From contig CBDBCY010000004.1 of NCBI GenBank assembly GCA_965203555.1, forward strand, positions 864,001-928,000: 64,000 bases of DNA, in the 5' to 3' direction. Shown piece after piece: positions 34,128 through 39,191 of this stretch. This DNA is from Acidimicrobiia bacterium. Lineage in GTDB: Bacteria; Actinomycetota; Acidimicrobiia; Spongiisociales; ZC4RG35. Made by a program: the position numbers and the translations under genes. Position 1 is the first letter of the stretch; every line of letters begins with the position of its first letter. The notes under the pieces are model-generated. The model ran no database searches and was not told the DNA's origin. It saw only the letters and a program-made list of their open reading frames with translations.

Positions 34128-35408
34128 TTGTCCAAAGAGGCCAAAACCAAACGCAATCCGAAGCGGATAGCAGGAATCCTGTTGTTCATTGTGGCGTTGG
34201 GCGCCCTGACCGTGCGGGAACTGATCTCAAGACCGCCTCCTTCGCCTTGGGACGACGGGCGCCTAACCGTGGGAACTCTTCTTCCGCTCACCGGCGACCT
34301 GGCTTCTTTTGGCCCGACACTGACCGCCGCGGCCCGGTTGGCAATAGGAGACATCAATGCGGCGGGTGGGATTCTGGGTGCCGAAGTCCTCCTACACGAG
34401 GCGGATTCAGGCGATCTGAGCCAGGACATCGCCAACCCCGAAGTGGACAGGTTGCTGGGTTTAGGGGTGGATGTGATAGTGGGCGCCGCAAGTTCTGCAG
34501 TCTCCAAACTGGTCATCGACAAGATCACCGGCGCCGGGGTGATCCAGTTCGCCCCATCCAATACTTCTCCTGATTTCACCTCCTACCCCGATAGCGGTCT
34601 CTACTTCCGGACCGCGCCACCCGATCTGCTGCTCTCTGCGATGATGGCGCAATTAATGGCCTCGGAAGGTGCCGAGACGGTTGGGGTGATCTACCGGCAG
34701 GAATCCTATGGAACCGGCCTGGCTGTTGCCTTCCGAGACAGTTTCGAGGATTTGGGGGGCACAATCGATCCGTTTGTCGCATACGCCCCCGGCACGGACA
34801 GTTTCGATGCCGAAGTGGATCTGCTCGTCTCTTCAGATCCTGACGCTGTCTTCATCATCGCCTTTGAGGAGGCAGGCGCGATCGTAACGACCATGCACGA
34901 GAGAGGAATCGGGCCTACCTCCGACACCAATGTCTACGGAACCGCTGGTCACATCTCCAGCATCGGCCAAGCCGTCTCTGATCCTTCCATCCTCAGCGGA
35001 ATGCGCGGCGCGGAGAATTCGGTGGATCTGCGAAAGATCCGGATCTTCACCGACCGGCTCGAAGGCGCTTGGGACGGTGGATTGGACGGGTTCTACACCT
35101 ATGGGGCGGAGACCTACGACGCGGTCATCATAGTCGCCCTGGCCGCCGAGATGGCCCGCTCCACCGCGCCCGCGGTAATCGCCAAGAAAATCAACGACGT
35201 GACCCGGAACGGCCAAAAGTGCTTCAGCTTCAGCGAATGCCTGGAGGTGATCTTCTCCGGCGGCGATCCCGACTATGACGGGTTCGGCGGGCAGTACGAG
35301 TTCGTGGACGTCGGCGAACCCTCGGTTGCGAATGTCCGGATCATGACCTACGACGGAGGGGATCGCCCGAACCCTACCCTCGACGAATACACCACCTACG
35401 GAGGCTAG
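34128..35408 (+). CDS. Branched-chain amino acid-type ABC substrate-binding protein (orphan)
   Basis: GTLLPLTGDLA, INAAGG, IVGAASS, YFRTAPPD, ETYDAV; N-terminal TM. Confidence 0.88.
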   Translation: MSKEAKTKRNPKRIAGILLFIVALGALTVRELISRPPPSPWDDGRLTVGTLLPLTGDLASFGPTLTAAARLAIGDINAAGGILGAEVLLHEADSGDLSQDIANPEVDRLLGLGVDVIVGAASSAVSKLVIDKITGAGVIQFAPSNTSPDFTSYPDSGLYFRTAPPDLLLSAMMAQLMASEGAETVGVIYRQESYGTGLAVAFRDSFEDLGGTIDPFVAYAPGTDSFDAEVDLLVSSDPDAVFIIAFEEAGAIVTTMHERGIGPTSDTNVYGTAGHISSIGQAVSDPSILSGMRGAENSVDLRKIRIFTDRLEGAWDGGLDGFYTYGAETYDAVIIVALAAEMARSTAPAVIAKKINDVTRNGQKCFSFSECLEVIFSGGDPDYDGFGGQYEFVDVGEPSVANVRIMTYDGGDRPNPTLDEYTTYGG

Positions 35409-35437
35409 GCCGATCCCTTCGCATCTGGGATCGAACC

Positions 35438-35584
35438 TCAAAGGCGGGCAGACAGAGTCTTGTTGACCGCCCTCGGGTCCGCCCTGCAAGAAGTCGCCCT
35501 CATCACTTGGCCGACCAGGAAACCTTGAACTTTCTTCTCCCCGGATCGGTAACGCTGCACCGCCTCCGGGTGGGCGGCCATCAC
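35438..35584 (-). repeat. Displaced duplicate of the gatB 3' end (att-like)
   Basis: 35499-35584 matches 37810-37895 at 84/86 nt; the remainder encodes RATSCRADPRAVNKTLSARL* vs gatB RATSGRADPRAVNKILSIQLQ*. Confidence 0.9.
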
Positions 35585-35667
35585 TTCCTCCACCGCCACG
35601 CCCTTCGCCACTCAACCACAAACTCCAAGAGGCTGGAGGGTGGTATCTTTGGGCCGTAGGAACAGCA

Positions 35668-36924
35668 ATGCTATTACGATTCGAGGTCGCGAACCACCGC
35701 TCAATTCTTGACCGAACAGGGCTATCCCTGATTGCCTCAAATGAAAACCGGACAGGAGTACGAAACTTCGAACACCTGTCCGAGTCTGTTCTGACGGTGG
35801 CAGGAATATATGGCGCCAACGCTTCCGGTAAGTCAAACACCCTTGAGGCTCTGGCGTGGCTCTCCACCGCCGTCTGGGGATCTCTTTTGGGATGGGATGA
35901 TCATGTGCCGCGGGATCCTCACCGTTTCGGAAGTGGTCCCAGTACGCCTTCCAGGTTTGATATCGACATCGCAATAGACGGTATTCAACACTGGTACCAG
36001 CTTGAGGTGGACGACACCAGTATTCTGCGTGAAAGTCTTTGGCGACTCCATGCCGGCGAGGAACAAGTAATCTTCGACCGCAACCGCGATTCATTTACCT
36101 CCCACGAAGGATTATCCAGAACAACAGGTATCAAAGAATTGCTTACTCCTACCACACTTGCCCTCTCGGCCGGTACGAGGCTCAGGGATCCCGCCCTACA
36201 CAAATTGGGTCGAATTCTTGGGAACTTCCACACACTCGGAATCAGGTACCGGCCCGGCATCTGGCGGTTCAACCGCCCACCCAGATCCTCGCTATATCTC
36301 TTTCAAAGAGAAGAGCAACGACGCCTACCCTACGGCTCACTCTCGTCAAATAGCAAAGCAACTGCTATTGAACTGCTCCGTTTTGCTGATCCAGGAATCC
36401 AAGCAGTCGAGGTGATCGGGCCGAATGGTGAAGGACGAAGACACCCTAGACGTCGACCAGTATTCCATCACTCCCAGGGAACGAACGTTGTCACATTCGA
36501 GAAACAAGAAGAGTCCCGTGGCACCCAAACATGGTTTGATCTTCTCGGACCGGTCCTCTCTGCGCTTATTGAAGGCCAAGTCTTGTTGTTTGACGAAATT
36601 GACGCCAGCCTTCACCCACGACTGTCAGCCCGACTGATTGACCTCTTCCGGGATCCGGAAACTAATCCCCACGGAGCTCAAATGCTATTTACCAGCCACG
36701 ACACTTCCCTACTGAACGTTCTGCACGATGACGAAGTCTGGTTGACCGACAAAGAGGTCAATGGTACAACTGACATCGTAGCGCTGGCAGACTACCGTCT
36801 TGACAGGGAACAGGTTTCCACCAATATCGAAGCAGCCTATTTGCAGGGGCGGTTCGGCGCCGTTCCCAGGGTTGATGATTATGATGTACAGAGGGCTCTG
36901 GAACTGCTGTTTCCGGAGGCGTAA
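35668..36924 (+). CDS. RloA/AbiLi-like ABC-type (AAA_21) ATPase
   Basis: MLLRFEVANHRSI, IYGANASGKSN, ESRGT, LLFDEIDASLHP, AQMLFTSHD, YLQGRFGAVP. Confidence 0.9.
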   Translation: MLLRFEVANHRSILDRTGLSLIASNENRTGVRNFEHLSESVLTVAGIYGANASGKSNTLEALAWLSTAVWGSLLGWDDHVPRDPHRFGSGPSTPSRFDIDIAIDGIQHWYQLEVDDTSILRESLWRLHAGEEQVIFDRNRDSFTSHEGLSRTTGIKELLTPTTLALSAGTRLRDPALHKLGRILGNFHTLGIRYRPGIWRFNRPPRSSLYLFQREEQRRLPYGSLSSNSKATAIELLRFADPGIQAVEVIGPNGEGRRHPRRRPVFHHSQGTNVVTFEKQEESRGTQTWFDLLGPVLSALIEGQVLLFDEIDASLHPRLSARLIDLFRDPETNPHGAQMLFTSHDTSLLNVLHDDEVWLTDKEVNGTTDIVALADYRLDREQVSTNIEAAYLQGRFGAVPRVDDYDVQRALELLFPEA

Positions 36925-36944
36925 TGGCAGGATCTTCCTAGGAC

Positions 36945-37541
36945 ATGGCTCGGAATAGGTCACTCAGACGTCCCCCTAAACATCGTCTCCCCAAGCGACT
37001 TTTCCTAATCTTCTGCGAAGGGAAAAGAACCGAGCCTCAATATATAAAAGGTTTGGGTCAAGTTCCGGAAATTCGAACCATCGCTTCTCTCGAAAGGGGA
37101 AAGTCAAATTCGGATCCTGCAAGCTTGGTGCGGCAGGCCATCAAAGCTCGCAACAGCCCGTACTATAACACCCACGAGATATGGTGTTTGTTCGATGTTG
37201 AATGGCCCGCAAGACCCAATCTACTAGAAACGGTTCGCTTTGCCCGCAGTAAAGGCATCCAATGCGCCGTATCAAATCCTTGTTTTGAACTATGGCTCAT
37301 TTTACACTTCAAAGACTTGCACAAGAGCCTTACAGTGGATCGTGCCGTTGAATTGCGCCAGGAGCACGACAAGAGCGTGGACAAGAGCGTGGATCCGGAG
37401 TTGTATATGGACCGACGTGACCAGGCCGCTACTCGCGCCCGTCGACTGGATGCCAAACATACGGAGGAGGAGAGGAGCTTCCCAAAAGACAACCCCTCAT
37501 CGGGGATGTACAAGCTACTGGACGCGTTCACCCACCCTTAG
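36945..37541 (+). CDS. RloB family protein (AbiLii-like, TOPRIM-type)
   Basis: IFCEGKRTEPQY, WCLFDVE, SNPCFELWLILHF, NPSS. Confidence 0.9.
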   Translation: MARNRSLRRPPKHRLPKRLFLIFCEGKRTEPQYIKGLGQVPEIRTIASLERGKSNSDPASLVRQAIKARNSPYYNTHEIWCLFDVEWPARPNLLETVRFARSKGIQCAVSNPCFELWLILHFKDLHKSLTVDRAVELRQEHDKSVDKSVDPELYMDRRDQAATRARRLDAKHTEEERSFPKDNPSSGMYKLLDAFTHP

Positions 37542-37745
37542 CAGTCGAACGGGAGACACTCCGGACGTTGACGCTCGTGCAAAGTGTTCCGAATAGGAAT
37601 AGCGGAGAGTCTTCGGGGTGGAACGAACCACAGCCTCCCGCAAGTAGCGGGTTTCCGCAAGAAGGAGAGCTCCCTGGCAAAGAAGACTCGTCATGATGTC
37701 AGCGTCTGGCCCGGCATGGGTCGATGCGGAGACCCGGTTATTCGG

Positions 37746-39191
37746 TTATTGCAGTTGGATGGAGAGTATCTTGTTCACAGCCCTGGGATCGGCCCGACCG
37801 GACGTGGCTCTCATCACTTGGCCGACCAGGAAACCTTGAACTTTCTTCTCCCCGGATCGGTAACGCTCCACCGCCTCAGGGTGGGCGGCCATCACCGCAG
37901 CGACAACGCTTTCCAGGGCCCCCTGATCGGAAATCTGTTCCAGGTTGCGGGCCCGGGCCACCTGCTCAGGTGTTCCCTCCCCGTCCATCACTCCCTCCAA
38001 CACCTCCCGGGCCGCGCTGGAGGACACCCGCCCTTCGCTCAACATGCGGGTCAGGGCTGCCAGGTATTCACCCCGCAGCGGAACTTCATCCACCGAGACC
38101 TCGCGACGACGCAGAGACGCGGTTATTTCGCCCGTCACCCAGTTGGCGGCCGCAACCGGCGCCGCCCCCGACGCCAGAGCGTCCTCGAATAGTCCTCGCA
38201 GATCCGGATCCGATGCAGCCAGAACCCGGGCCGAGGAGGGGTTCAGTCCCAGGTCCCGGTACCGTTTCCGCCGCTGAGCGGGAAGTTCGGGAATCTCGGA
38301 TCGGACCGCTTTCACCCATGACTCGTCGAAGACCATGGGCGCCAGGTCCGGCTCGGTGAAGTAGCGGTAATCAGAGCTTTCCTCCTTGGTGCGCATCCCA
38401 TGGGTGATACCCGCCGATTCATCCCAATGCCGGGTCTCCATCACCACCCTTTCCCCCGCATCACGCAACGCCACCTGCCGATCCACCTCCGCCCGTATCG
38501 CCTTTTCCAGGGAGCGAAAAGAGTTCATGTTCTTGATCTCGACTTTCACTCCCAGCTTTTCGCTGCGCTCGGGTCGGATCGAGACATTGGCGTCAAAGCG
38601 AACCGAGCCCCGCTCCAGGCGGGCGTCGGACACCCCCGTCTCCGCCACCACCGCTCGCAGTTCCTGGGCGTAGGACCGGGCGTCGGCTGCGCTTTTCAGG
38701 TCGGGACGAGACACAATCTCAACCAGGGGCGTCCCGGCCCGGTTGAAGTCCACCAGTGTCTCGGCCGCGGTGTGGATTCTCCCTCCCTCCCCCACGTGGA
38801 CGGACTTGCCGGTGTCCTCCTCCATGTGAACCCGCTCGATTCCCACCCGCAAAGACCCCTGATCGGACTCCACATCCAGCCATCCGTCCACGCACACCGG
38901 TATATCGAATTGGCTGATCTGATAGTTCTTGGGCAGGTCGGCGTAGTAGTAGTTCTTGCGGTGAAAGACCGAACTGGGATTTATCCGGCAGTTGAGAGCC
39001 AGTCCCAACCGGACGATCCGATCGATAGCCTCCCGGTTGGGCACGGGAAGGGATCCCGGCAGCGCAAGGCACACCGGGCAGACGTTGGTGTTGGGGGGAT
39101 CGCCGAACGAGACCCGGCACCCGCAAAACATCTTGGAAGCGGTGTCCAACTCCACATGCACCTCGATGCCGATCACCGGCGTCCACTTCAT
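37746..39191 (-). CDS. gatB: Asp-tRNA(Asn)/Glu-tRNA(Gln) amidotransferase subunit B
   Basis: IGIEVHVEL, RKNYYYADLPKNYQISQ, HMEEDTGK, EIKNMNS, YRYFTEPDL. Confidence 0.98.
   Translation of the reverse strand: MKWTPVIGIEVHVELDTASKMFCGCRVSFGDPPNTNVCPVCLALPGSLPVPNREAIDRIVRLGLALNCRINPSSVFHRKNYYYADLPKNYQISQFDIPVCVDGWLDVESDQGSLRVGIERVHMEEDTGKSVHVGEGGRIHTAAETLVDFNRAGTPLVEIVSRPDLKSAADARSYAQELRAVVAETGVSDARLERGSVRFDANVSIRPERSEKLGVKVEIKNMNSFRSLEKAIRAEVDRQVALRDAGERVVMETRHWDESAGITHGMRTKEESSDYRYFTEPDLAPMVFDESWVKAVRSEIPELPAQRRKRYRDLGLNPSSARVLAASDPDLRGLFEDALASGAAPVAAANWVTGEITASLRRREVSVDEVPLRGEYLAALTRMLSEGRVSSSAAREVLEGVMDGEGTPEQVARARNLEQISDQGALESVVAAVMAAHPEAVERYRSGEKKVQGFLVGQVMRATSGRADPRAVNKILSIQLQ

Follow-up and report, generated by a model that had tools for sequence, protein, structure and literature searches.

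We analysed a two-gene cassette at the end of gatB in an Acidimicrobiia bacterium (GCA_965203555.1; genome G000), a metagenome-type assembly of four contigs. The window is the whole 64,000-nt stretch of contig CBDBCY010000004.1 from position 864,001 to 928,000 of the forward strand. In this window, gatB and a convergent gene for a periplasmic binding protein border a spot that holds an RloA-like ATPase and an RloB-like protein, and this pair is enclosed by two copies of the gatB 3′ end (Table 1).

Table 1. Features of the gatB spot in window coordinates. G008 and G011 are genomes of the same genus; X1 is a sequencing run.
Feature	Coordinates	Strand	Basis
gatB, 481 aa, last gene of gatCAB	37746–39191	minus	GatB_N 2.9e-112; GatB_Yqey 8.6e-45, profile positions 2–145/148
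gatB 3′ tract of different ancestry (G011-like, not G008-like), ~gatB nt 1090–1446	37746–38102	minus	sliding windows, informative sites, trees
Repeat copy within working gatB	37762–37895	minus	core 37810–37895, diverged tail 37762–37809
204-nt spacer, RloB stop to gatB stop	37542–37745	none	no family, promoter or terminator signal above shuffles
RloB/AbiLii-like protein, 198 aa, presumed Toprim-type nuclease partner	36945–37541	plus	PF13707 5.9e-36; PADLOC AbiLii 2.2e-26
RloA/AbiLi-like ABC-type ATPase, 418 aa	35668–36924	plus	AAA_21 1.1e-30; PADLOC AbiLi 5.8e-82
Segment missing in run X1 relative, 23 other letters instead	35643–37689	none	one 393-nt contig, depth 10.5
Displaced gatB 3′ fragment, 57-aa frame	35438–35611	minus	GatB_Yqey 97–148/148, E 1.2e-16; end ...TLSARL (stop)
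Repeat copy in displaced fragment	35451–35584	minus	core 35499–35584
Periplasmic binding protein gene, convergent with gatB, borders the spot on its other side	34128–35408	plus	Peripla_BP_6 7.4e-35; syntenic in 15/16 congeners

The gatB-end repeat and the RloAB pair

A repeat search returned a single long direct repeat, which consists of the gatB 3′ end; its copies are 134 nt long, 87% identical, and spaced by 2311 nt. Direct repeats made from the end of a target gene that itself stays intact are one mark of an integrative element, and this is what is found at gatB. The repeat contains a core of 86 nt that is identical at 84 positions (2 mismatches, E 4e-41 by blastn-short) and exact over 58 nt. 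An earlier note on this DNA, made from the letters alone, had given the same figures for this core, and the 58-nt stretch is independently reproduced by contigs of a sequencing run (X2, below). The same note placed the end of the homology upstream of the peptide VMAAHP, which is broadly correct, except that a weak likeness to gatB reaches about 20 nt further upstream in the displaced copy (AVEE, where congeners have VVEE). Between the copies, family matches occur only in the ATPase and RloB frames, and the GC content is 0.524 in the cassette compared with 0.631 in gatB and 0.617 in the far flank, so that the description of the cassette as two genes in lower-GC DNA stands. The cassette is single copy in the genome. 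Scanning 35350–37950 for promoters and terminators gave 0 and 3 sites, respectively, which is not above shuffles. We conclude that the repeat-flanked cassette at the gatB end is confirmed as a real, well-delimited feature.

The two copies encode nearly the same peptide and differ mostly at synonymous positions, as had been noticed before: 16 of the 45 codons common to both differ, 13 synonymously and 3 non-synonymously, and of the 18 base differences, 3, 1, and 14 are at codon positions 1, 2, and 3, respectively. In the core, the window copies are closer to each other than to anything else, the next best match being 73/86. In the tail outside the core they are identical at 33 of 51 positions, the lowest value among all tail pairs, with 12 synonymous and 2 non-synonymous codon differences. 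This excess of synonymous change indicates that the two ends diverged as working genes under purifying selection and thus that the repeat joined two working gatB ends from different lineages, which is not the outcome of duplication in place. The displaced copy would accordingly be chimeric, its core homogenised and its tail unrelated.

Which end is native can be judged from the context. The displaced copy ends ...TLSARL (stop), the type of the genus (congeners end ...ARL (stop), with two variants), and the convergent binding-protein gene has its stop 29 nt away, a spacing like that of the gatB ends at empty sites. The working gatB ends ...ILSIQLQ (stop), which is found in no congener. Together these features support the displaced copy as a native-type end in its native context, as the earlier note had suspected from the ARL ending. 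The displaced copy carries a Gly-to-Cys and an Ile-to-Thr change, and the Gly is part of a conserved Gly-x-Ala-x-Pro stretch; by our own alignment by eye, this Gly would match G457, given as a pocket residue of Staphylococcus aureus GatB in the accessible text of PMC2811023.

The ATPase residues G49, G54, K55, D309, and E310 are invariant in alignment A2, and in our own reading they probably represent the P-loop and the acidic box. The RloB gene follows the ATPase gene after 20 nt on the same strand and retains 31 of the 34 positions that are conserved at at least 85% in 77 sequences, departing at 3. From these family matches, including those of PADLOC to AbiLi and AbiLii, we infer that the cassette is a two-gene defence pair of the AbiL/RloAB type, in agreement with the AbiL relationship proposed earlier. 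In its accessible text, a review groups AbiL with PARIS as systems that pair an ABC ATPase with a TOPRIM/OLD protein, names Campylobacter RloAB as a further such system, and describes the mechanism of AbiL as untested (PMC13064643). The window pair resembles AbiL of Lactococcus and RloA-RloB of Campylobacter in having two adjacent, co-directional genes for an ATPase (AAA_21/AbiLi) and an RloB/AbiLii partner. It differs in the very long branch of its ATPase (1.38, compared with a median of 0.24) and in the three departures of its RloB from conserved positions. In the ATPase tree, the window protein and that of congener G008 are sisters (Shimodaira–Hasegawa-like approximate likelihood ratio test, SH-aLRT, 96), and that of congener G009 falls in the same 7-row Acidimicrobiales group (84), which also includes four loci that do not adjoin gatB. 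We found no close relatives of the ATPase on plasmids or phages, where the best matches have 43% and 37% identity.

A variable spot and a mosaic gatB

To place the cassette in its genus, we mapped the window proteins onto gatB and about 8 kb downstream of it in 16 congeners; gatB itself is present in all 41 related genomes searched (including G027 and G038). Thirteen of the 16 are empty, with the gatB stop about 25–40 nt from the stop of the convergent Peripla_BP_6 gene, and one metagenome contig (L151) is a further empty site. Two congeners, G008 and G009, hold an RloA-RloB pair at the same place by Pfam, and the G008-type arrangement recurs in three metagenome contigs (L149, L150, and L168, of which L150 is possibly G008's own). 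The remaining congener, G005, carries a Peptidase_M78 gene (IrrE-like, 388 aa) and a DUF4411 gene (126 aa) at L037:6359–7905, without the binding-protein gene; no gatB-end repeat was found at its gatB spot. The same flanking core genes are therefore seen in empty and in differently filled states, and the two things that the earlier note had proposed looking for, empty sites with an end like the displaced copy and different cargo, both occur among the congeners, in line with its suggestion of a hotspot.

The three RloAB alleles are mutually only 51–58% (RloA) and 42–49% (RloB) identical, compared with 77–92% for the neighbouring proteins, and all three cassettes have a GC content of 0.52–0.55, compared with 0.62–0.64. 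At each RloAB-occupied site, part of the gatB end occurs a second time towards the binding-protein gene, and this copy always continues through the stop codon into a native-like spacer. The repeat of the window is 134 nt long; in G008 it measures about 78 nt (32 nt of it at 91%), and in G009 it is 16 nt, exact and across the stop.

Beyond the genus, the searches gave no support for gatB as a general target. When 401 genomes of the class were searched with the tail, 373 matched and no displaced gatB tail was found beyond the window's own genome; two tail matches occur only in that genome and in G582; those of G582 are both in long frames, on two contigs. RloB is present in 16 of 301 genomes of the order, and gatB lies within 1.5 kb of none of the 19 loci other than the window's. 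Among the best 80 RloA loci in species genomes (42–55% identical), gatB adjoins only that of G008. We found no described integration at gatB in the literature, as far as the accessible texts go. These comparisons support the spot as a variable, genus-specific hotspot between the convergent ends of gatB and the binding-protein gene.

No recombinase is encoded in the element, which has just two genes between its repeats. Judged by their family matches, the frames in 31–42 kb of the window include nothing like a recombinase, and the genome as a whole has three matches to PF00589 (tyrosine recombinase; C4:709388, C4:2524639, and C1:80014, with the window at C4:864001–928000) and no match to PF00239 (serine recombinase). 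The nearest PF00589 match on the window contig is about 190 kb away. The family scans of window and genome thus agree with the earlier observation that no integrase lies in or near the cassette.

We examined three sequencing runs (X1, X2, and X3) as contigs only, and contigs drop rare forms. In run X2, which is probably the source or a sister sample, a 58-nt contig at 37810–37867 has a depth of 14, and a 2313-nt contig spanning 35527–37839 has a depth of 7.6, with flanks at 6–7; every junction word is reproduced. A 58-nt stretch at double depth and a cassette at flank depth are what a k = 31 graph should give when single-copy DNA is enclosed by an exact 58-nt repeat. Neither the 2311-bp deletion joint nor the circle joint appears in the contigs of the three runs. 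The earlier suggestion of an attachment site mobilised in trans gains nothing from these data, which show no use of a recombinase and no excised or circular form.

Run X1, labelled as a coral metagenome and from another study, contains a relative that is 95–97% alike. One 393-nt contig (depth 10.5) joins 37963–37690 through 23 other letters to 35642–35599, with 274 and 44 letters on the two sides; beyond 35599 come 5 letters and then sequence like gatB near 37995. This relative keeps both gatB ends and lacks the intervening RloAB segment, and its second gatB copy appears longer. In run X3, 35446–35727 and 37702–37842 have no contig cover. A 719-nt contig of that run (depth 33, flanks 4–8) equals 36927–37610 and then leaves the window sequence, so that the RloB region may stand in another context or copy number there.

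Direct evidence on how the cassette arrived comes from gatB itself. In 150-nt windows, the nearest match of the window gatB is G008 as far as about column 1050; from about column 1125 on, it is G011. Identity to G008 and G011 is 87% and 79% over columns 1–1050, and 76% and 83% over columns 1100–1431. Informative sites of G008 type and G011 type number 130 and 48 left of column 1089, and 23 and 48 right of it. Columns 1090–1296, which lie upstream of the repeat, alone give 17 and 35 (Fisher 2e-7, with a breakpoint chosen post hoc). Maximum-likelihood trees join the window with G008 for columns 1–1050 (100/100) and with G011 for columns 1100–1431 (99/97), so that the flank bears signs of recombination in the form of conflicting, well-supported trees. 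G009 groups with G006 in both parts (83% and 83%). We conclude that gatB is mosaic, that the switch lies about 200 nt upstream of the repeat, and that the final ~355 nt are one foreign, G011-like tract. The incoming sequence thus does not begin at a crossover inside the repeat, as it would at an attachment site. What the earlier note took for a short, recoded replacement end is instead part of this longer tract, which resembles the gatB of another congener; its alternative of a swap by homologous recombination receives direct support. As a separate observation, the gatB of G009 has a 1-nt gap near nt 1105 (L048) that splits the frame, with one TGA in the match, either a real frameshift or an assembly error.

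Similar builds at other loci

The window genome has a second RloA-RloB pair, directly after a BKACE gene (PF05853, 9.7e-46) on contig C1 (L200:5700–8782); its RloB contains an in-frame TAA. An exact 19-nt repeat brackets this pair (spacing 2129 nt); at 38 bits, it outscores each of the 56 controls in the survey described below. One 19-nt copy lies 54–72 nt before the BKACE stop, and a diverged BKACE end follows the other copy. In G008 (L202:436–1604), the BKACE end is likewise duplicated (108 nt, 94%, spacing 1059 nt), here around two small frames, one of which runs into the displaced end. The sole Pfam match of this cargo is the displaced BKACE end, and we dropped the candidate reading of the two frames as a toxin-antitoxin pair because they have no Pfam match. 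The other congeners with a BKACE gene have neither feature within 1.5 kb of it. The presence of the BKACE build around other cargo in G008 means that the architecture is not tied to RloAB.

We then surveyed flanking repeats at the 80 best RloA loci, 75 of which have RloB adjacent and 64 of which have enough flank. A flanking direct repeat of at least 28 bits is present at 8 of the 64 RloAB loci (including G008) and at 2 of 56 offset controls. Repeats of 70–295 nt at 85–94% identity occur at 7 of the 64 loci, in Actinomycetota and Acidobacteriota, and none of the 56 controls has one that strong. In three Vicinamibacterales loci (L079, L117, and L103), the duplicated piece comes from one gene's 3′ end; at L108 it is, in our own reading of the translation, the 5′ end of an epimerase-like gene, and at L146 it comprises two convergent gene ends; the repeat at L136 is possibly generic GC-rich sequence. 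In the complete chromosomes of L079 and L103, the nearest PF00589 match is at least 50 kb from the repeat-flanked cassette. Seven of ten frames adjoining the repeats at other loci have no Pfam family, and no tRNA gene was found as the source of the repeats at the other RloAB loci or at the BKACE cassette.

In Acidobacteriota, the cassettes of L070, L071, and L085 are 93–94% identical over about 2 kb in unrelated flanks, the common unit running from 72 nt before RloA to the RloB stop. With sensitive alignment, four of six loci of the Acidobacteriota clade (L070, L071, L085, and L087) have no flanking repeat above shuffles. Two further loci, L119 and L120, have identical RloA, cassettes 99% identical, and flanks 97–99% identical in DNA; they carry the titles of an Acidobacteria and a Gammaproteobacteria metagenome-assembled genome with like-named isolates, and they represent either one contig binned twice or a very recent transfer.

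History of the islet

The reading that we favour, though by a modest lean, is that of an integrase-free defence islet in a genus-specific hotspot that was last moved by homologous recombination, with the repeat as a scar left by an older insertion, through which a foreign gatB end came in. We infer the direction and order of events, and the origin of the first duplication, as follows. An earlier insertion would have brought its own gatB end, which kept the essential gene whole, and the repeat would be its scar. This first event may have been the arrival of a recombinase-borne island that has since eroded to a module that is hard to lose, or a circle with a gatB fragment may have entered by one crossover. 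The short exact repeats of G009 and of the BKACE cassette and the cargo-less X1 form fit the erosion of a classical element, and the lack of any integrase-bearing relative fits the circle. The present cassette would have come later by homologous recombination with a related bacterium, a congener, whose spot was already filled. The left crossover probably fell inside gatB, about 355 nt before its stop, so that the working gene would end in foreign sequence and the old end would be left behind the cassette as a decaying fragment. The near-identical 86-nt core would be a crossover or gene-conversion tract between the copies, and the repeat could act as a homology arm for both gain and loss. Homologous recombination would account for the foreign tract upstream of the repeat and for alleles being exchanged at one site, and it fits the absence of recombinases and the single-copy depth.

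Several observations weigh against this history. All three cassettes are low in GC, which suggests that they came from outside the genus, and recombination among congeners does not account for this; the short exact repeats (16 nt in G009, 19 nt at the BKACE cassette) resemble recombinase cores or microhomology more than long homology arms. The right-hand crossover was not located, in that no third of the binding-protein gene gives the window a supported sister. On the left, the breakpoint was picked post hoc, identity to G011 in the foreign tract is only 83%, too low to point to a donor, and G008, the genome of comparison, also holds a cassette and may itself be recombinant.

The main alternative, possible although we consider it doubtful, is a site-specific integrative element that now has no integrase, either the remnant of a larger island, eroded to two genes that are hard to lose, or a cis-mobilisable cassette moved by a tyrosine recombinase in trans. 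The repeats would be attL and attR, and the working gatB end would be the replacement brought by the element. Elements that integrate in the 3′ end of a protein-coding gene and supply a replacement end are well known: e14 and phage 21 do so in icd, and ICESt1 in fda, where integrase-less CIME derivatives also exist. The gatB locus has the classical architecture in common with them: the gene's end is directly repeated, incoming sequence completes the intact gene, the native end is displaced, the differences are mostly synonymous, and relatives have empty sites. The exact short junction repeats of G009 and of the BKACE cassette favour such an element, as do the recurrence of the architecture with other cargo at BKACE in G008, the strong flanking repeats at 7 of 64 RloAB loci against none of 56 controls, and the X1 form, which fits a last stage of erosion. 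Erosion to islets of a toxin-antitoxin system only has been proposed, in the accessible text of PMC13617665. However, every RloAB unit bounded by repeats contains RloAB only and no recombinase; none of the three PF00589 matches of the window genome is nearby, and in the two complete chromosomes the distance is at least 50 kb. In contrast to the icd and fda elements, the gatB locus has repeats that vary in length among the three occupied genomes, and its foreign tract has its start some 200 nt upstream of the repeat, an offset that cannot result from crossing over within an attachment core. The contigs of the three runs contain no excision or circle joint, and the ATPase has no close relative on plasmids or phages (best 43%).

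An unlikely alternative is one ancient insertion in the ancestor of the genus followed by vertical descent, with fast evolution of the defence genes and precise loss through the repeats in most species. The repeats would permit clean loss, the window and G008 are sister genomes by gatB columns 1–1050, and their ATPases are sisters too, with that of G009 in the same group. That group also includes the four loci away from gatB, however, and the cassettes are 42–58% identical where the flanks are 77–92%. Their GC content is still about 10 points under that of the genome in all three cases, the displaced tails show nearly only synonymous change, unlike the decay of an old pseudogene, and gatB is mosaic right beside the cassette.

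Self-movement of RloAB, in which its nuclease would cut empty sites and repair would copy the cassette in, as in homing, seems to us very unlikely. Co-conversion of flanks, as seen in gatB, is a signature of homing, and the near-identical Acidobacteriota cassettes in unrelated flanks would suit it. Homing does not duplicate its target, though, the same repeat build encloses cargo other than RloAB at BKACE in G008, other cargo also occupies the gatB spot of G005, and four of the six Acidobacteriota-clade loci have no flanking repeat above shuffles. A mis-joined repeat or misplaced cassette is barely credible: the assembly is of metagenome type in four contigs and k-mer graph contigs alone cannot order a repeat, but the X2 contigs reproduce every junction at the depths expected, the parallel G008 arrangement occurs in three metagenome contigs, and copies that differ at 18 sites are not one collapsed sequence.

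Returning to homologous recombination as the last step, we put forward a more general idea, quite tentatively. Small selfish or defensive two-gene modules, such as RloAB and other pairs, may travel free of recombinases as gene-end-carrying cassettes, each flanked on both sides by a copy of a conserved gene's 3′ end. They would loop out between the copies and re-enter a relative by a single crossover, with the carried end keeping the gene whole. Such cassettes would explain the builds at gatB in three genomes and at BKACE in two genomes with two cargos, as well as the repeats at 7 of 64 RloAB loci. Defence genes are known to accumulate in hotspots, but how the smallest defence islets enter and leave genomes without mobility genes is poorly understood, and this one islet presents together the scar of two diverged ends of an essential gene, a mosaic flank, a cargo-less intermediate in a related strain, and a second locus of the same build. 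Should the pattern prove general, integrase-free cargo could be searched for by the signature of duplicated gene ends, and the gatB spot could become a test bed for how an uncultured Acidimicrobiia lineage gains and loses defence genes.

The locus is a combination of known kinds, a defence islet in a core-flanked hotspot with the scar of a gene-end insertion. The accessible texts of PMC10250203, on the core-gene-flanked defence hotspots (cDHS) of Pseudomonas aeruginosa, and of PMC13617665, on toxin-antitoxin islets, describe small islets that lack mobile-element genes and propose that these spread through recombination in the core genes beside them. The mosaic flank at gatB supports this mode of spread. 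The gatB spot resembles both in its fixed core flanks, variable cargo, lower GC content, and lack of a recombinase. It differs in that the insert overlaps an essential gene at its end and contains a second copy of that end, a duplication that the accessible parts of these two papers do not mention. The gatB spot is also tiny (0 to 2.3 kb) and was seen in one genus only.

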